This document shows, piece by piece, positions 1 to 37,046 of a stretch of DNA of 37,046 nucleotides. The stretch's first letter is position 1, and each line of letters starts with the position of its first letter. The notes beneath the pieces were generated by a model. That model saw nothing but the letters and a program-made list of their open reading frames with translations, made no database searches and had not been told where the DNA came from. Source of the DNA: a virus (lineage: Duplodnaviria; Heunggongvirae; Uroviricota; Caudoviricetes); the IMG/VR virus record IMGVR_UViG_2896601577_000003; one strand, given 5' to 3'. Position numbers and translations under genes: made by a program.

Positions 1-141
1 TTACTGCTTACACTGTAAGAACGCCGCAAACTCCGCTCCCCAGAAGCTCATCCGTATTTCGCACAGCGAACCGTGCAGCATCCAGATGATGAGGATTGCC
101 GTCACGCAGAACGTGATGGCCGTAAGCGATTTTTGCGACAT
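1..141 (-). CDS. Hok/Gef-family type I toxin (small membrane peptide), chromosomal flank of the prophage
   Basis: 46-codon reverse-strand ORF (ATG 141-139, TAA 3-1), below the ORF-track length cut-off so read by hand: MSQKSLTAITFCVTAILIIWMLHGSLCEIRMSFWGAEFAAFLQCKQ. One hydrophobic helix followed by LCEIR...EFAAFL, the pattern I recall for Hok/Gef peptides. AGGAG about 8 nt upstream. Confidence 0.5.
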   Translation of the reverse strand: MSQKSLTAITFCVTAILIIWMLHGSLCEIRMSFWGAEFAAFLQCKQ

Positions 142-492
142 AGCGCTTGCTCCTTTTTCGGGGAGGCGCTAACCTATCACTTGCTTAGGGTAGACGGTTA
201 GGGCCTCGGTTAAACAAAAATGTTTTCCGGGGCCTTTCCACATCTGGCCTTCAGGTATTCCCTCCGACCATCAGCCGAAAGGCACCCGCGCGTAATCTAT
301 CGCTTTTTTGTTACTCCGGCAATTCTGCTCGTTAATTCTGAGGTAAGGGCAAACTCATCTGATTGTTTCCTCTGTGTGAAGTTGGCAGTTCATGCCACGG
401 GTAGACTGGCCCCCTGAATCTCCAGACAACCAGTATCACTTAAATAAGTGATAGTCTTAATACTAGTTTTTAGACTAGTCATTGGAGTACAG

Positions 493-854
493 ATGATTGA
501 TGTCTTAGGGCCGGAGAAACGCAGACGGCGTACCACACAGGAAAAGATCGCAATTGTTCAGCAGAGCTTTGAACCGGGGATGACGGTCTCCCTCGTTGCC
601 CGGCAACATGGTGTAGCAGCCAGTTATTTCTCTGGCGTAAGCAATACCAGGAAGGAAGTCTTACTGCTGTGGCCGCCGGAGAACAGGTTGTTCCTGCCTC
701 TGAACTTGCTGCCGCCATGAAGCAGATTAAAGAACTCCAGCGCCTGCTCGGCAAGAAAACGATGGAAAATTAACTCCTCAAAGAAGCCGTTGAATATGGA
801 CGGGCAAAAAAGTGGATAGCGCACGCGCCCTTATTGCCCGGGGATGGGGAGTAA
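493..854 (+). pseudogene. insC: IS2 orfA (InsC), frame-broken
   Basis: ORF 448..720 contains [44 protein letters not shown] (InsC N-terminus) and then leaves the InsC frame near 620. An in-frame TAA follows at 771-773 (MEN*). Intact InsC should be about 121 aa ending near 854. Confidence 0.7.
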
Positions 855-1717
855 GCTTAGTCAGCCGTTGTCTCCGGGTGTCGCGTGCGCAGTTGCACGT
901 CATTCTCAGACGAACCGATGACTGGATGGATGGCCGCCGCAGTCGTCACACTGATGATACGGATGTGCTTCTCCGTATACACCATGTTATCGGAGAGCTG
1001 CCCACGTATGGTTATCGTCGGGTATGGGCGCTGCTTCGCAGACAGGCAGAACTTGATGGTATGCCTGCGATCAATGCCAAACGTGTTTACCGGATCATGC
1101 GCCAGAATGCGCTGTTGCTTGAGCGAAAACCTGCTGTACCGCCATCGAAACGGGCACATACAGGCAGAGTGGCCGTGAAAGAAAGCAATCAGCGATGGTG
1201 CTCTGACGGGTTCGAGTTCTGCTGTGATAACGGAGAGAGACTGCGTGTCACGTTCGCGCTGGACTGCTGTGATCGTGAGGCACTGCACTGGGCGGTGACT
1301 ACCGGCGGCTTCAACAGTGAAACAGTACAGGACGTCATGCTGGGAGCGGTGGAACGCCGCTTCGGCAACGATCTTCCGTCGTCTCCAGTGGAGTGGCTGA
1401 CGGATAATGGTTCATGCTACCGGGCTAATGAAACACGCCAGTTCGCCCGGATGTTGGGACTTGAACCGAAGAACACGGCGGTGCGGAGTCCGGAGAGTAA
1501 CGGAATAGCAGAGAGCTTCGTGAAAACGATAAAGCGTGACTACATCAGTATCATGCCCAAACCAGACGGGTTAACGGCAGCAAAGAACCTTGCAGAGGCG
1601 TTCGAGCATTATAACGAATGGCATCCGCATAGTGCGCTGGGTTATCGCTCGCCACGGGAATATCTGCGGCAGCGGGCTTGTAATGGGTTAAGTGATAACA
1701 GATGTCTGGAAATATAG
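812..1717 (+). CDS. insD: IS2 orfB (InsD) transposase, DDE catalytic domain
   Basis: 301-aa ORF; sequence matches IS2 InsD as I recall it (…[32 protein letters not shown]…[19 protein letters not shown]…). Confidence 0.9.
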
Positions 1718-1728
1718 GGGCAAATCCA

Positions 1729-1924
1729 ACGGGATGCCCTCTGATGAGTGAATGGGGGAGGCGTGCTTTGAAGTGAATTTGTGGAAGGCTTCCAGTGTTG
1801 AGAAACATACGCCGCATTCTAGATTGTTACACTGATAATACTTTTGTCTCACGGTGTTTGAATCATTTTCCGGACGACTGGTGCGGATACGGGCAGATGC
1901 GCCACAAAGCGGACAACGGAACAT
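1729..1924 (-). pseudogene. ogr: Ogr/Delta-family zinc-finger late-gene activator, interrupted after codon 65 by IS2 (3' remainder at 332-396)
   Basis: N-terminus MFRCPLCGASARIRTSRPENDSNTVRQKYYQCNNLECGVCF has the C-x2-C ... C-x4-C spacing of P2 Ogr. ORF 1688..1924 runs into the IS2 end (the tail [11 protein letters not shown] is IS2-encoded and recurs on ORF 33127..33366). Joining 1729 to 396 across the duplication restores an 86-codon ORF ending TAA at 334-332. Confidence 0.7.
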
Positions 1925-2059: not shown

Positions 2060-4918
2060 TTATTCTGATGTCACTCTTTGCGAGTGAGCTATTTTTAAAT
2101 CAGCGTTTCCTTCAAATACTACATTCAACTCATAGTTAAGAGTTAGCTTGAATTTTTCTGAGTCACTTTTGATATTCTCTGAAGTGACATTTACTAACTT
2201 ATTATTATCATATTCTCTAATAATTAATTTAGTGAAGTAGTTATCCTTTACCACAAGAGAAAATGGTTGATTAACAAATGGTAAGAAGTAAACCTTACGG
2301 GTACCGGATTCAGTAGTTATGTTCATAGAGCCATCATCATTTTTTCTCATTAGTTCTCTGAGGTTGGGATTATCGAAAAGCATACGATTATATTGCTGAA
2401 AGATCTCTTTACTCATCACAAGAACCAGTTTGCCAGCCAAGTCAGCAGATGATTTTATGTGATCAATCAACATATTGAAATCTTCTATTACGGTATGTTG
2501 CGAACAGCCAGTGCTAAATAAATTTGAAAGTATTATTCTCTGGATGTCCTTGAGAATTAAGTCTGCTTGAATATCACCTTCATTGATATAAGGGATGGAT
2601 TCTATTCCTTCGGCATACGGTTCTTTATCTATCTTAATAGATATCTTATGTTTTGTGAAACAATCGCTAGCCTGCTTAAAATCAATAGATTTGAAAAGTG
2701 AAAGAGGGAGCGTTTTCTTGATGCGTTTACGAAGATGTTCTGATGTTTTACGTGCAGTGCTATCTAGTCGATGTACATCTATGGCAGCATCCTGAAGTCT
2801 CATATCAAGATCTTTCTTTAGCATGTTAATATGCTCTTGAAGCAACTTTCTTAAGTTTTCTTTTTTTGTTTGGAGATCGTCCAATGTTAAAGTCAGCTTG
2901 ATTTTAGTGTATTCGATGGAGTTACAAATTTTTGATAATACTCCAATGAGTCGTTGCTTCTCACGATATGTTATATAGTTGTTTTCTATTGCTTCTTTTA
3001 TTTCTTTTGATACGCTATCGTTCTTGTTAGAAAAAATTAATAATAGCTGAACCCATGATTGTTCCATATCAATAAATCCACAGTCAAAAACATTACTGTA
3101 AACTCTGCCCATCACCATGTCTGTTTTATCATAGTCACGTAAACGCCTTGCTAAACTATTCATCCACCCATTGTGCTCCATATTTTCAGACCATGTCCAC
3201 AGGCAGATTCTAATTAATATCTTGATTAGTTGGCTTGCATTATCAATTTCTTCAGTGGGAGTTTCATATCCACCGGTTTGGTCAATAAGTTTACCCTCTA
3301 AAATAAGTTTAATGTAATGTGTCATTAGTTTGTCAGAAGTATTGATTCTTGATGTCAGATAAAGACATGTGCATATACGCATGTCAGTCAACGCATTTAT
3401 GATGGCAATATTGAACCACTCTCTGTCTGAATTGAAGTTTAGTTTTTTGGATATGAAAAAAACCGGGTTAAAAAGCTGGCCTTTGTAACTGTATTTTTCT
3501 ACCGAATGGCTGTCAATATTCATTGAGTGCTGCCATCGGTTAATAAGATCGACGGCTGTATCAATAGTAGAAGGATCGCGAGTCTGTGTTGCATCAATAA
3601 TCATCGATGGAAGTTCTTGTAGTTGCGTTTTGCAAAATAATTCAAATAAATCTGAATTCTCTGTATTGCAGAAACGAAAGTTTATGCTTTCTTGATATTG
3701 CTCCCAAACAGTGGTATAGGTTCTTAATATACGATTATAACGTGAACGAAGCGAGGCATTTAAGAGTGATTGGTTGTTTCGGAACCATTCTGTCAATATT
3801 GACCATTGTGAACGAGTAATTCCCATATAGATACAAAGTTCATTGCTGATAAGATGTTTTCTATTATTGATAATACGCACTCCGCTCCAAAGACATAATT
3901 CAAAAAATCTTTCAGAAAGATTAATTTTATCCATGGAATTATTTGATATTTTATAAACTTCATCTGAAAACTCATATTGAAAACTCCGTTCAAATAATTC
4001 TGTAGTGATCAGTAAGAAGTTATTGTTGGTATTATCATCTTGAAAAAAATACAAATCGCAGAGATTATTAAAGTTATTAATTAATGCAGAGATAGCATTG
4101 TCAAAACTAATGAGATCAGAATCCCGCAGATACATATACGTATCTGCTGTTATAGCCTGCATTGTAAGACTTACGGAAAAATCTCCTCCTTTAATCGGAG
4201 CCCTATAAAAACATTGCTTAAGTATTTTTATTAATAAGCTGTCTGGTTTGATATTTTTAACGCTAAAAAGTATCTTACCCGTGGATTCTGTTTCTTTTGT
4301 ACGATTATCACCAATGACAAATGACGCAAAATGATTCTTCTTTTTTAGTTGGTAATTAATAAGATTAAGAGTAAGTTGAAAAGGACGGTGATATAAACTT
4401 AACTCATCTTCCTTAGAATAACTGCTAGCCACAGATATGTATTCTCCTTTGTAATCAGCTTGCTTGATTTCTAAATTTGAATAGTTATGTTTTTGATAGA
4501 TAGGGTATAACCTAAGCTTGGCTGAGATTTTGTTACAAATATGGGGCATTACTATTTCGAAGGCAATGTATCGCTTTATAATTATTTGCCGTTTTACATC
4601 ATCAAGAATTTCAAGACTCACGATAAAGAACCAAATAGAAAGAACTATGTTTATCAAAAGCCATAATATGCTGATTAGACAAGCTATACCATAAAGATAA
4701 CTTCCAAAGACAGTTTTAATTAGTACACTGAGAAGTATAAATCCTGATAAGAAAAGCCCGCTGAGTCCAGCAAGCATGAATCCTGAGTAACGCTGATAAG
4801 CAGTTTGGGCTATTTTTCTATCTGCCTTTTTTTGGAATAAGATACTTACTAAACCTATAACAAGGGGTATACAATACCAATAATTGTCAATTGGCCACTT
4901 AAAATGGTTGTTTGCCAT
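2060..4918 (-). CDS. Hypothetical 952-aa membrane-anchored protein, unknown family (cargo gene in AT-rich island)
   Basis: Uninterrupted 2859-nt ORF in visibly AT-rich DNA. The first ~110 aa contain 3-4 hydrophobic helices (CIPLVIGLVSILF; FMLAGLSGLFLSGFILLSVLI; YLYGIACLISILWLLINIVLSIWFFIVSL). The remaining ~840 aa are Lys/Asn/Ile-rich with a coiled-coil-like stretch (…LTLTLDDLQTKKENLRKLLQEHINMLKKDLDMRLQD…). I found no Walker A, PD-(D/E)xK, HEPN or kinase motif by eye. Confidence 0.6.
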   Translation of the reverse strand: MANNHFKWPIDNYWYCIPLVIGLVSILFQKKADRKIAQTAYQRYSGFMLAGLSGLFLSGFILLSVLIKTVFGSYLYGIACLISILWLLINIVLSIWFFIVSLEILDDVKRQIIIKRYIAFEIVMPHICNKISAKLRLYPIYQKHNYSNLEIKQADYKGEYISVASSYSKEDELSLYHRPFQLTLNLINYQLKKKNHFASFVIGDNRTKETESTGKILFSVKNIKPDSLLIKILKQCFYRAPIKGGDFSVSLTMQAITADTYMYLRDSDLISFDNAISALINNFNNLCDLYFFQDDNTNNNFLLITTELFERSFQYEFSDEVYKISNNSMDKINLSERFFELCLWSGVRIINNRKHLISNELCIYMGITRSQWSILTEWFRNNQSLLNASLRSRYNRILRTYTTVWEQYQESINFRFCNTENSDLFELFCKTQLQELPSMIIDATQTRDPSTIDTAVDLINRWQHSMNIDSHSVEKYSYKGQLFNPVFFISKKLNFNSDREWFNIAIINALTDMRICTCLYLTSRINTSDKLMTHYIKLILEGKLIDQTGGYETPTEEIDNASQLIKILIRICLWTWSENMEHNGWMNSLARRLRDYDKTDMVMGRVYSNVFDCGFIDMEQSWVQLLLIFSNKNDSVSKEIKEAIENNYITYREKQRLIGVLSKICNSIEYTKIKLTLTLDDLQTKKENLRKLLQEHINMLKKDLDMRLQDAAIDVHRLDSTARKTSEHLRKRIKKTLPLSLFKSIDFKQASDCFTKHKISIKIDKEPYAEGIESIPYINEGDIQADLILKDIQRIILSNLFSTGCSQHTVIEDFNMLIDHIKSSADLAGKLVLVMSKEIFQQYNRMLFDNPNLRELMRKNDDGSMNITTESGTRKVYFLPFVNQPFSLVVKDNYFTKLIIREYDNNKLVNVTSENIKSDSEKFKLTLNYELNVVFEGNADLKIAHSQRVTSE

Positions 4919-5178
4919 TCGGTTAATGAATGCCTAAACGGGAAATAATGTAAAAGATTATTTTTTATAAATAATTCGTTTAAATATCCAACATAAAGTA
5001 GTACAAATGAAAAAGCTGATATGCAAAGTACTGATTTAACCGGTGAGGATGTTAATCTTATGATGTTTTTTTCAATAAAATTCCATTTTAAATTCGAATA
5101 AAATGGATTTTTAACCATTTTATTACGAACATAGTTCTTTGCTAAAATCTCTGTTGCACTTAAAAATTGTCCAATCAT
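4855..5178 (-). CDS. Small hypothetical membrane ORF (107 aa), either a separate gene or the frame-shifted N-terminus of the 952-aa gene
   Basis: ORF overlaps the 5' end of the large ORF by 64 nt in another frame. Contains a hydrophobic helix (VLCISAFSFVLLYVGYL). Same AT-rich composition. Homopolymers GGGG/AAAA lie in the overlap. Confidence 0.35.
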   Translation of the reverse strand: MIGQFLSATEILAKNYVRNKMVKNPFYSNLKWNFIEKNIIRLTSSPVKSVLCISAFSFVLLYVGYLNELFIKNNLLHYFPFRHSLTEWQTTILSGQLTIIGIVYPLL

Positions 5179-5426: not shown

Positions 5427-6534
5427 TTATTCTGTTTCTGCTATCCATTCCGGGATTTTTGCTTCAAGTTCAAGCTGCGTGGTAAAGCCGCTGTTATCAA
5501 TGGTGTGCTCGGCTTTTGCAATAATCCAGTCCTGATAATCAATCTCGCTTTTAAAGCCTGTCACTGTGCCATGCATTTCGGGATAGAGTTCTGCACGACC
5601 ACGCGCCAGCGTGATGGAGAATGATGCGGCTCCGCGTTGTAGCTGCTGCCACTTTGCCGCCGCTGCGCGTCTTGCTGCCTGCTCGTTCTGATAAGTCTTG
5701 CGTAACACAAACACGTTGCCTTCCGCACCTTCCATATAGTCGCCTTCCCGACTGCTACTTTTCTCCTTTTTGGGTTTTGGCGGTTTGCGGCGTTTCACGC
5801 TGACTTTTTTCTTTTTCCCGTAATTAAGATCAAGCCAGTAGGCGCGTACCCCCGTATACGCCTCGCGGTCAGCAATGCGGAACTGATGGCGATCGCCGCT
5901 GCTGCGTGTAATGGCGAACGAGGGCAACGGCTGCCCCTGTGCGTTCACGCCACCACCTGGCATGATGAATAACAGATTGCCGCTTTTTACCGTGGCGATT
6001 GCTCCCAGCATTTCCGCCATGCGCGTAAGAAAGGACATGTCGCTTTCTTCGGTCTGGTCGGCGTGGTCGATTTCGATATCCATCAGCATTTCGCTGATTT
6101 GCGGTTTCAGACCGTATCGATGAGCGATGGCGGATACCACACGCTCAACGGTCACATCATGCCAGGACACCTCACGTTTAACGTTAAATTCATCCCGAAA
6201 ATCTGCGCTTCTGGCTGAAACAGTCAGCCTGTCCGGCGGTCCTTCGTGAGCGATTTCATCAACAATGTAAGTGCCTTTTTCTGTCAGCGGTTCCCCTTTC
6301 CAGCCAATGAGAACCGTCAGACGCGGCCCCGTGGCGGTAGCTGCAACTGACCATCCGCATCATCCAGCGTGATGGTGAGCTGGTCCGCCTCAAATCCCCG
6401 GTTGTCGGTCAGTTACAGGCTCATCAGGCGCTCCGCCACGCCTGACAGCGTTTTACCCTCCGAGAGAATATCAAAATCCGGCATTTTCACGGGGGCCGTG
6501 CCCTGACTGAGCAATTGCATGGTGGTGTCGGTCA
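5427..6534 (-). pseudogene. D: P2 gpD-like tail protein; C-terminal 247 codons intact, N-terminal third frame-broken
   Basis: ORF 5427..6170 matches the P2 D C-terminal region as recalled (…ATVKSGNLLFI…ITRSSGDRHQFRIADREAYTGV…REGDYMEGAEGNVF…SGFTTQLELE…). ATG at 6534-6532 gives MTDTTMQLLSQGTAPVKMPDFDILSEGKTLSGVAERLMSL, then an in-frame TAA and frame changes before 6170. Confidence 0.8.
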
Positions 6535-34757: not shown

Positions 34758-36065
34758 TGAACCGCCCGGGAATCCTGGAGACTAAACTCCCTGAGAAAGA
34801 GGTAAACAGGATGACTAAAAATACTCGTTTTTCCCCGAAGTCCGTCAGAGGGCGATTCGTATGGTTCTGGAAAGTCAGGGCGAATATGACTCACAGTGGG
34901 CGGCAATTTGTTCCATTGCCCCAAAGATTGGCTGTACACCGGAGACTCTGCGTGTCTGGGTACGCCAGCATGAGCGGGATACCGGAGGCGGTGATGGCGG
35001 GCTCACCACCGCTGAACGTCAGCGTCTGAAAGAGCTGGAACGTGAAAATCGTGAACTGCGCCGCAGTAACGATATCCTTCGCCAGGCTTCCGCTTATTTT
35101 GCGAAGGCGGAGTTCGACCGCCTCTGGAAAAAGTGATGCCACTGCTGGATAAGCTGCGTAAGCTGTACGGGGTCGGACCGGTATGCAGTGAACTACATAT
35201 TGCCCCGTCAACGTATTACCACTGTCAGCAACAGCGACATCATCCTGATAAACGCAGTGCCCGTGCGCAGCGCGATGACTGGCTGAAGAAAGAGATACTG
35301 CGCGTATACGATGGGAATCATCAGGTATACGGTGTGCGTAAAGTCTGGCGTCAGTTGTTACGGGAAGGTATCAGAGTGGCCAGATGCACTGTGGCACGTC
35401 TCATGGCGGTTATGGGACTTGCCGGTGTTCTCCGGGGTAAAAAGGTCCGTACGACCATCAGCCGGAAAGCCGTTGCCGCAGGCGACCGCGTAAACCGTCA
35501 GTTCGTGGCAGAACGACCTGACCAGCTGTGGGTGGCTGATTTTACTTACGTCAGCACATGGCAGGGCTTCGTCTATGTGGCGTTCATCATTGATGTGTTT
35601 GCCGGATACATCGTGGGGTGGCGGGTCTCATCGTCCATGGAAACGACATTCGTGCTGGATGCTCTGGAGCAGGCGTTATGGGCCCGTCGACCGTCCGGCA
35701 CGGTCCATCACAGTGATAAAGGTTCTCAGTATGTATCGCTGGCCTACACACAGCGGCTTAAGGAAGCCGGATTACTGGCATCAACAGGAAGTACAGGCGA
35801 CTCGTATGACAACGCGATGGCGGAGAGCATCAATGGTCTTTACAAAGCGGAGGTAATACACCGTAAGAGCTGGAAAAACCGTGCAGAAGTGGAACTGGCC
35901 ACACTCACGTGGGTGGACTGGTATAATAATCGACGATTGCTGGAAAGGCTGGGCCATACTCCTCCGGCAGAAGCAGAAAAAGCTTATTATGCTTCCATCG
36001 GAAACGATGATCTGGCAGCCTGAGTTCACAGATAAAACACTCTCCAGGAAACCCGGGGCGGTTCA
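34758..36065 (+). mobile_element. IS3-family element (IS629-like, about 1.31 kb) inserted between C and int
   Basis: Imperfect terminal inverted repeats TGAACCGCCCGGGAATCCTGGAGA… (34758…) and …TCTCCAGGAAACCCGGGGCGGTTCA (…36065). orfA from about 34811 (MTKNTRFSP…, one frame break near 34840) and orfB 35133..36023 with a DDE domain; A AAA AAG slip motif near 35124-35130. Flanked by the direct repeat CGAA (34754-34757 and 36066-36069). Confidence 0.85.
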
Positions 36066-36068
36066 CGA

Positions 36069-37046
36069 ATGAGCATAAAATCAATTCTGGGAGGGTATCT
36101 TCTTGACATGTGCCCTGAGGGGCGTAAAGGCAAACGCATTCGCAAAAAATTTAAAACGAAATCGGATGCAGTTTTATATGAGCGGTGGGTGCTGGCGCAA
36201 CAGCATAACAATGAGTGGAAAGGAAACTCTATTGATCGCCGTCCTCTGTCAGTGCTTATTGACTTGTGGTGGAAATACCACGGCCAGCTAATGAAGTCAG
36301 GGCATAACACGCGCCTTAAATTGCTGCGCTTGAGTGAAGCAATGGATGACCCGTGCGTGCATAAACTTAATACAACGATGCTCACCGAGCTACGTGTGTC
36401 CAGGATAGAGCAGGGGATACAGCCCAGCACCATAAATCGAGAGATTGGGGCGTTAAGCGCGATGTTTACCGCACTCATCTCATCCGGCCATTTTCTTAAC
36501 GATAACCCCGTTCAAGGCCTTAAAGGAATGAAGGTTAAGGAGCGCGAAATGGGATATCTGAGTAAGTCTGAATGTGTTCAGTTGCTGGATGCACTGGCTG
36601 AAAATCCCGATGAACGACTGGCTGTCGAAATCCTTCTGTCGACCGGGGCGCGATGGGGCGAGGTAGCGGCACTGGAGCAGCGCCGTGTTCTTCATTGTCG
36701 AATCACTTTTTCAAAAACGAAGAACAGCAAAAACCGTACCGTTCCTATTTCTGAAAGCCTGTTTGAAAAGATCAAAAAACGGGGCGGGAAACTGGTGTTT
36801 CCGACGCTGGATTATTCATTGGTTCGCGATGTCATCAAAACGGTCGCACCTGATGTTCCTGACGGCCAGGCTGTTCATGCGCTGCACCACACCTTCGCCA
36901 GTCATTTCATGATGAACGGCGGCAATATTCTGACGCTCCAGAAAATTCTGGGGCACGCAAAGATTCAGACAACGATGATTTATGCCCATCTTGCGCCGGA
37001 TTACCTGCAGGATGCGGTGAGGTTTAATCCACTAGGAGGTGCTTAA
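36069..37046 (+). CDS. int: Tyrosine integrase (P2 Int-like)
   Basis: 325 aa ending …HALHHTFASHFMMNGGNILTLQKILGHAKIQTTMIYAHLAPDY… (R…H-x2-R…Y catalytic region); N-terminal …GRKGKRIRKKFKTKSDA… parallels P2 Int. Stop is the last codon of the window. Confidence 0.9.
   Translation: MSIKSILGGYLLDMCPEGRKGKRIRKKFKTKSDAVLYERWVLAQQHNNEWKGNSIDRRPLSVLIDLWWKYHGQLMKSGHNTRLKLLRLSEAMDDPCVHKLNTTMLTELRVSRIEQGIQPSTINREIGALSAMFTALISSGHFLNDNPVQGLKGMKVKEREMGYLSKSECVQLLDALAENPDERLAVEILLSTGARWGEVAALEQRRVLHCRITFSKTKNSKNRTVPISESLFEKIKKRGGKLVFPTLDYSLVRDVIKTVAPDVPDGQAVHALHHTFASHFMMNGGNILTLQKILGHAKIQTTMIYAHLAPDYLQDAVRFNPLGGA

Follow-up and report, generated by a model that had tools for sequence, protein, structure and literature searches.

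The hok gene, ogr and IS2

At the left end of the window (the whole stretch of 37,046 nucleotides analysed here), the minus strand carries a hok coding sequence of 46 codons and a stop at 141..1, and upstream of it lie a control region, the 3' part of the late-gene activator gene ogr (332..401, minus strand), a copy of IS2 (402..1728, plus strand) and the 5' part of ogr (1734..1924, minus strand). The hok stop codon occupies 3..1, and because window position 1 is its last base, the window is without the hok 3' untranslated part with its fbi element and terminator.

The hok product, MSQKSLTAITFCVTAILIIWMLHGSLCEIRMSFWGAEFAAFLQCKQ (translation of 141..1, minus strand), was taken from the open reading frame list and compared with Pfam and PHROG. 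It matched Pfam HOK_GEF (PF01848) with 29.9 bits (E 4e-7), above the gathering score of 22, with residues 7-44 aligned to profile positions 5-42 of 42, and it matched PHROG 251 ('MokW-like host killing') with an E value of 1.3e-22. When it was aligned with R1 Hok, HokB-E, HokW and PndA, for which the comparison peptides came from Table S2 of bioRxiv 10.1101/2025.08.07.668861, SLCEIR was located at residues 25-30 and EFAAF at residues 37-41. The peptide therefore has the build of the Hok/Gef family, that is, about 50 residues with an N-terminal hydrophobic helix and then a (S/D)LCE(I/V)R...E(V/F)AA segment. In relatives it is annotated as WP_000078916.1, 'Hok/Gef family protein', and PADLOC gave no match for Hok and the neighbouring 952-aa ORF. 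Judged by its sequence, the frame at 141..1 is a genuine toxin gene of the Hok/Gef family, as the original prediction of a 46-codon Hok/Gef ORF at the left edge had it.

The reconstruction of ogr and the limits of IS2 also agreed with what had been predicted, namely an ogr stop at 332-334 and an IS2 start at 402. Deletion of 402..1733 restored an ogr gene of 261 nt (86 codons), identical at 261/261 positions to the uninterrupted relative L001, with its stop codon (334..332) 9 nt upstream of the hok -35; the zinc-finger domain in the 5' part is intact (Pfam Ogr_Delta, 52.7 bits, residues 3-49). The IS2 copy is 1327 bp long, ends at 1728 and is flanked by a 5-bp target duplication, ACGGG, at 397-401 and 1729-1733. 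In comparison with IS2A of K-12, the copy lacks 4 bp after 616 and reads TAA for GAA at 771 in orfA. The exact IS2-in-ogr junction was found in no complete E. coli genome, in which the best contiguous matches were 94.7% identical. IMG/VR provirus L098 is identical over window 1-700 and likewise ends at the hok stop.

It had further been proposed that the prophage together with IS2 sits in a position that inactivates hok. The left end of IS2 (402) falls within ogr and is 80 nt away from the hok -35 (322..317), on its upstream side, so that IS2 is neither within nor abutting the hok/sok regulatory region, in contrast to a K-12-type IS-inactivated hok. IS2 thus disrupts ogr only and leaves the sequence of the hok cassette untouched.

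The hok leader, predicted promoters and predicted Sok RNA

Homology and conservation point to a hok promoter on the minus strand, with a predicted -35 TTGCCG at 322..317, a 17-nt spacer and a -10 TAGATT at 299..294, from which the transcript would start at about 287 (minus strand) with GGGUGCC. The -10 is present as TA[GAC]A[TA]T in 93/94 relatives, and among the 12 relatives without a nearby ogr or upstream homology it was retained in 11, a TTGC-type -35 being retained in 4. The hok mRNA leader (128..287, minus strand) was matched on the hok-sense strand by Rfam RF01794 'sok' over the full length of the model (1-157), with a score of 46 bits (E 1.4e-8) that is below the family gathering score of 59.

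On the plus strand, conservation argues for a Sok promoter with -35 TTGCTC at 147-152, a 17-nt spacer and -10 TAACCT at 170-175; the two hexamers are kept in 91/94 and 94/94 relatives, respectively, and the spacer is gap-free. This predicted -35 is antisense to the bases directly 3' of the hok SD. Fold and position further suggest a Sok antisense RNA of about 58-64 nt at 182..240 (plus strand), the ends of which we infer. Its 5' tail would be single-stranded over about 14 nt, with 18 nt before the main stem; a hairpin rich in G+C (200-236) and a UUUCC end would follow, and the RNA would be complementary to hok mRNA nt 48-106. The predicted 64-nt RNA folded with -23.2 kcal/mol (z -3.07), and the position of its hairpin is homologous to that of the sokT hairpin in the Rfam model.

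A generic scan of 1-420 for sigma-70 consensus promoters and terminators flagged neither of the two promoters nor any terminator, including any between ogr and hok. The promoters agree with the consensus at only 8/12 positions, which is why the scan missed the hok promoter. Both promoter assignments are predictions made from homology and conservation only. The original prediction had regarded the region upstream of hok as cut short, with the att junction falling in 142-331. As far as the sequence tells, however, 142-322 is fully taken up by the predicted hok promoter, the 5' tac, the Sok gene and the SD hairpin, which are conserved control elements, and the upstream control region is complete; moreover, five genomes without IS2 match window 1-401 with 100% identity.

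Folding of the hok mRNA

The MFE fold placed a tac element at the 5' end of the hok mRNA, GGGUGCCUU... (273..287, minus strand), and the fold and conservation together indicated an SD hairpin at 141..171 (minus strand; nt 117-147 of the reconstructed mRNA), in which the hok AGGAG (154..150) and the start codon are held against an upstream anti-SD CUCC (165..162). Within this hairpin GGAG (153..150) is paired with the CUCC and the AUG lies in the stem. The pairs were retained in 36-37 of the 37 distinct homologues, two of them alternating between G-C and G-U, and both the fold and the homologues thus display the RBS sequestration of hok/sok systems.

Beyond the window edge, the siblings have a hairpin after the hok stop, then fbi and then a terminator. 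The sibling fbi is AAGGCACCC, located 57-65 nt 3' of the stop and an exact complement of the 5' GGGUGCCUU, and the terminator 3' of it is CCCGCAGCG/CUGCGGG. With these two elements taken from siblings, outside this window, the reconstructed 408-nt hok mRNA had an MFE of -174.5 kcal/mol (z -6.99; 0/100 shuffles as good), and nt 1-15 (tac) were paired with nt 337-352 (fbi) in the MFE and the centroid folds alike, a pairing seen in siblings only, fbi being left of the window. A constrained comparison on the full-length RNA favoured the tac-fbi fold as well (-174.5 vs -160.0 kcal/mol). After a 3' deletion of 72 nt (fbi onward), the 5' end of the mRNA re-paired with nt 50-59 (238..229). By analogy, this refolding upon fbi removal follows the logic of R1, where fbi would act as a lock that is opened by 3' trimming.

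When the fold was projected on the 37 distinct homologues, 94% of the pair cells were canonical, compared with 38-43% for partners slid by 1-2 columns, and two-sided changes occurred at 27 pairs, although this agreement is inflated because one of the sequences in the alignment had supplied the structure that was tested. Variation on the fbi side was mostly wobble-compatible, with C>U changes keeping G-U pairs at positions 2, 3 and 5. RNAalifold, applied to the 37 homologues, chose a local 5' hairpin over tac-fbi, the one that forms with nt 50-59 after fbi removal. We read this hairpin as an alternative, processed-mRNA conformation and not as counter-evidence to fbi, because the single-sequence MFE, the centroid and the constrained comparison all favour tac-fbi in the full-length RNA.

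The upstream open reading frame

The sole ORF of the leader in the open reading frame list is a 24-codon frame at 243..169 (minus strand; MWKGPGKHFCLTEALTVYPKQVIG, then a stop), which is in frame with hok. The frame opens at mRNA nt 45, on the 5' side of the Sok-complementary hairpin, and closes with a UAG (171..169) 27 nt ahead of the hok start codon, where the SD hairpin has its 5' foot. Its AUG, which is conserved in 94/95 analysed relatives, was paired in the fbi-locked fold and unpaired after fbi removal. Among the loci the ORF is 1 to 79 codons long: 51 have a 19-codon form (that of most P2-type copies), 19 have 24 codons, the window's form included, 14 have 1-17 codons, and in 10 the ORF extends over 61-79 codons and overlaps hok. 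Neither peptide nor frame is conserved among the relatives, and Pfam and PHROG gave no family match.

The original prediction had called this frame mok-like. An ORF with a conserved AUG is indeed present on the hok strand, but it does not occupy the place that mok has in R1 or hokW and, as noted, the frame itself is not conserved. No ORF of at least 20 codons overlaps hok on its strand in the manner of an R1-type mok, no AUG, GUG or UUG was found in mRNA nt 88-106, and the loop in which R1 mok and mokW begin has no start codon here.

In R1, whose mok AUG is at 116-118, toxicity is lost when mok has a premature stop ahead of hok, and ribosomes must translate 'at least up to the hok SD' (PMC9841398). 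By the R1 rule, the upstream stop and the lack of an overlapping mok mean that Hok translation from the native locus might be weak or absent. The upstream ORF may be a functional mok analogue for which being translated is what counts; alternatively, its AUG may merely be part of a conserved helix. Further, we put forward as a tentative and rather doubtful idea that the leaders of Hok cluster 72, to which this peptide belongs, differ from R1 in having, in place of a mok that overlaps hok, a short ORF at nt 45 whose start is hidden in the fbi-locked fold and exposed by 3' trimming, that in P2-family phages, where the ORF ends at the foot of the SD hairpin, the terminating ribosome and not an overlapping frame opens the hok RBS, and that the adjacency of ogr without a terminator could tie Hok release to the late programme. 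The non-canonical, truncated leader ORF is the only mildly novel point of the locus.

Distribution of the ogr-hok junction and integration sites

Among 5426 complete E. coli genomes, window 1-401 had matches in 1545, and the ogr-hok junction was found at 80% coverage or more in 1214 (about 22%), a coverage which indicates that hok and ogr are joined in the same manner in these genomes; the segment was colinear in 1209 E. coli records. An ogr homologue adjoins hok in 82/96 fetched hok loci. The junction is located downstream of ihfA (the ihfA-btuC site) in strains VG38-53E1 and MEI003 and downstream of ytfP in strain CFSAN051542, and to the left of hok the prophage at ytfP consists of P88 DNA for at least 745 bp, 99.9% identical to the P88 record. 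The same junction is present in the phage records P88, Xuanwuvirus P884B11, 500465-2, Citrobacter phage Shae_phiSM, PhiR44_2 and Chuche, and the gene order of phage Chuche is cox - repressor - int - (attP) - mom/com - hok - ogr - D.

The sibling prophage of VG38-53E1 is 100% identical over window 1-401 and is flanked by a duplicated 25-bp att core, GGCCGCTCTGCGGCCTTTTTTCTTT, which is the ihfA terminator; its attR core is 261 bp beyond the hok stop, corresponding to 261 bp left of window position 1. The ihfA-btuC site of K-12 is empty, with a single att core and no hok, and the empty-site comparison that had been suggested as a check thus argues that hok is not chromosomal there. The window integrase is 99.6% identical to that of the VG38-53E1 prophage, and therefore the window prophage is likely integrated at the ihfA-btuC site.

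The original prediction had assigned hok to the chromosomal flank. Since the cassette lies between ogr and the phage attachment site, it belongs inside the prophage, not to the host flank, and it behaves as phage cargo: it is colinear in phage records, lies between att cores in lysogens and occurs at two or more integration sites. Many IMG/VR proviruses end exactly at the hok stop, like the window, and the left edge of the window is therefore a gene-call boundary of prophage prediction and not a phage-host junction.

Measured from the -10 to slightly beyond fbi, the cassette spans about 370-430 bp; it is also found in Stx phages, with 82% identity, on a few plasmids and at the chromosomal sites ykgM and serS. 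Matches in contigs of a Planococcaceae MAG, Vagococcus and Xanthomonas were near-identical to the E. coli cassette and lay on short or odd contigs, and we set them aside as probable contamination. Among the papers searched, none was dedicated to hok in P2-like phages.

Interpretation of the locus

We conclude that the locus is very probably a phage-borne hok/sok cassette, carried as cargo (a moron) by the P2-family, P88-like (Xuanwuvirus) prophage that fills the window. By analogy with R1, the full-length hok mRNA would be locked and untranslatable through its 5'-3' pairing; slow 3' trimming would strip fbi, whereupon the 5' end would refold onto nt 50-59 and expose the upstream AUG (nt 45) and the Sok target. 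As long as Sok is made, the processed mRNA would be bound and destroyed; once Sok synthesis stops, through loss of the prophage or shut-off of host transcription by another phage, the stable mRNA would be translated and Hok would depolarise the inner membrane. The benefit to the phage would likely be prophage retention and/or the exclusion of competing phages, and a lysis-helper role like that of hokW-sokW is possible.

It seems unlikely to us that the cassette serves mainly to help lysis within the late programme of the phage, like hokW-sokW of Sp5, instead of acting in addiction or exclusion. hokW-sokW about doubles the release of Sp5 after mitomycin C (Takada et al. 2021, PMC8621323), and ogr of a P2-like Salmonella prophage was transcribed in all tested conditions (PMC7067206); because ogr ends 9 nt before the hok -35 and no terminator-like site was found between them, ogr read-through could raise hok mRNA and collide with Sok transcription in the course of lytic growth. 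For P2-family phages, however, this role is by analogy only, the Hok peptide shares just 28% identity with HokW, which is in another cluster, and in this window IS2 would block read-through from ogr. Moreover, a read-through transcript would be 5'-extended, with tac not at its 5' end, so that its behaviour is not predictable.

Somewhat less probable still is a cassette that is phage-borne but translationally silent or decaying, in which the leader ORF is truncated, Hok is not made and the locus is hitch-hiking DNA. Because relatives exist in which this AUG begins an ORF of 61-79 codons that overlaps hok, the short upstream ORFs look truncated; the upstream peptide sequence is not conserved, and mok stops upstream of the hok start abolish toxicity in R1 (PMC9841398). 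Against such decay, the Hok ORF is intact in 91/95 loci, and its dN/dS of 0.13-0.32, calculated pairwise against relatives found by DNA similarity, indicates purifying selection; the 84 loci with an identical Hok peptide have 16 synonymous polymorphic sites, in a set that is biased because it was selected by protein identity. In addition, the promoter hexamers, tac, fbi and the SD hairpin are all conserved, a ribosome terminating at the UAG at the SD-hairpin foot would cover the anti-SD, and about 22% of the complete E. coli genomes carry the cassette.

That hok is a chromosomal gene beside the att site, its regulatory region truncated or displaced by the prophage and IS2 as in silenced K-12 loci, is highly implausible: hok is the last gene at the window edge, the end of ogr is 190 nt from the hok start and several K-12 hok loci reportedly have IS elements nearby, as Pedersen and Gerdes are said to have described in 1999, but different chromosomal sites as well as phage records contain the ogr-hok segment, the sibling att core lies beyond hok and the empty K-12 site is without it, 142-322 is full of conserved hok/sok elements, and IS2 is inside ogr with IS2-free copies identical over 1-401.

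For the phage-borne reading, the practical consequence is a correction of such prophage-boundary calls: hok should be counted with the phage, as its final gene, and not as the start of the host genes, and the calls cut off the 3' fbi element and the terminator. The cassette is common, apparently intact and already known at the level of annotation and catalogue; its leader without an overlapping mok offers a modest, testable point on the gating of Hok translation in cluster 72.

Comparison with known hok systems

The window Hok is 24-33% identical to R1 Hok, HokB, HokC, HokD, HokE, HokW and PndA. In Table S2 of Escalera-Maurer et al. (2026, bioRxiv 10.1101/2025.08.07.668861) it corresponds residue for residue to 72_1621 (construct LRP137) of Hok cluster 72, a high-abundance cluster, and 72_1589 of the same cluster, 74% identical, is the form that Stx phages carry (L007). 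In the arabinose-induced panel of that preprint, which contained both 72_1621 and 72_1589, 42/45 Hok peptides were toxic, and the three non-toxic ids were 19_179, 60_1482 and 69_1540. The window Hok peptide is thus already catalogued and, by the preprint's panel and id list, would be among the toxic ones. For cluster 72 the preprint deals with the coding sequence only, and the ogr-attP location in P2-family phages, mok and Sok of this cluster are absent from it; it describes hok as enriched in prophages, where its function 'remains to be studied'.

The K-12 genes hokA-E belong to the same Pfam family, with 24-28% identity to HokB, C, D and E. They are fixed chromosomal loci, whereas the window cassette is mobile with the phage and has its IS element in the neighbouring gene. 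hokW-sokW of the Stx2 prophage Sp5 (PMC8621323) shares PHROG 251 with the window Hok, but it is a separate locus, HokW is 51 aa long, 28% identical and in a different cluster, and mokW is a 70-codon in-frame N-terminal extension that starts in the loop downstream of the Sok hairpin. We considered whether the Stx-phage relative of the cassette was hokW itself and rejected this, hokW being a separate locus in those phages: Stx phages such as AP004402 carry both hokW (28.8 kb) and a cluster-72 cassette (15.6 kb).

With R1 hok/sok the cassette shares a structured mRNA of about 400 nt with a 5' tac able to pair with a 3' fbi, a stop-codon-proximal hairpin followed by fbi and the terminator, a buried hok SD, a predicted convergent Sok promoter with its -35 beside the hok SD on the other strand, and a predicted Sok hairpin with a short U tract behind it; both Hok peptides contain the SLCEIR and AAF motifs. 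In R1, the Sok -35 is antisense to the bases just 3' of the hok SD. The mok and hok start positions of the R1 sequence used here match PMC9841398. The two systems differ in that the peptides are 30% identical, 46 aa in the window and 52 aa in R1, that the window cassette has neither a hok-overlapping mok nor a start codon in the R1 mok loop, and that R1 hok/sok resides on a plasmid whereas the window cassette is carried by a phage.

Apparent variable cargo between ogr and gene D

The interval between ogr and tail gene D is occupied by a 952-aa ORF on the minus strand (2060-4918, with 4855-5178), for which no match was found in Pfam or PADLOC. By eye, this ORF is A+T-rich. What occupies this position differs among the related E. 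coli prophages: strain MEI003 has a GmrSD nuclease there, VG38-53E1 has a 1039-aa ORF labelled "MFS transporter", and CFSAN051542 has nothing. Judged by these sequences, the ogr-D interval looks like a variable cargo slot, and the cargo is possibly defensive. The adjoining gene D homologue (5427-6170, minus strand) is 247 aa as called and covers Phage_GPD profile positions 84-304, compared with 366-369 aa for the product of phages P88 and Chuche. Several E. coli relatives have a 267-aa version with a small pseudogene fragment alongside. These prophages may carry a split or mis-started gene D.

Insertion sequences

The IS2 copy in ogr (402-1728) is 1327 bp long rather than 1331 bp. Measured against K-12 IS2A, its orfA (insC) has lost 4 bp after position 616, and a GAA codon at 771 has become TAA. 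From its sequence, the copy is probably unable to make its own transposase. The identical insertion is present in L098, an IMG/VR provirus, and a few E. coli genomes carry IS2, differently arranged, close to the ogr-hok junction or right at it. A second insertion-sequence transposase gene, of the IS3 family and with rve, HTH_21 and rve_3 domains (35133-36023, plus strand), separates the early region from the integrase gene int (36069-37046) and is immediately upstream of int.

The hok/sok cassette and its flank

Rfam family RF01794 ("sok antitoxin") matched 128-287 on the minus strand, the hok-sense strand, covering the hok mRNA leader up to the hok start, and did not match the antisense Sok RNA; therefore, the family name misleads on strand assignment. 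A search of genome contigs found near-identical copies of this E. coli phage cassette (L013, L014, L017) in assemblies that carry the labels Planococcaceae MAG, Vagococcus sp. and Xanthomonas pisi. Because these contigs are short or odd, they are probably contaminants.

The interval from hok to the attachment site differs between the fetched relative loci (L002 5256-6000; L005 1-746; L006 1896-2905; L001 5740-6000): the ihfA-site prophage has 261 bp without a gene, P88 and the ytfP-site prophage have two small ORFs, one of them YidD-like, and phage Chuche has a Mom-like methyltransferase and Com.
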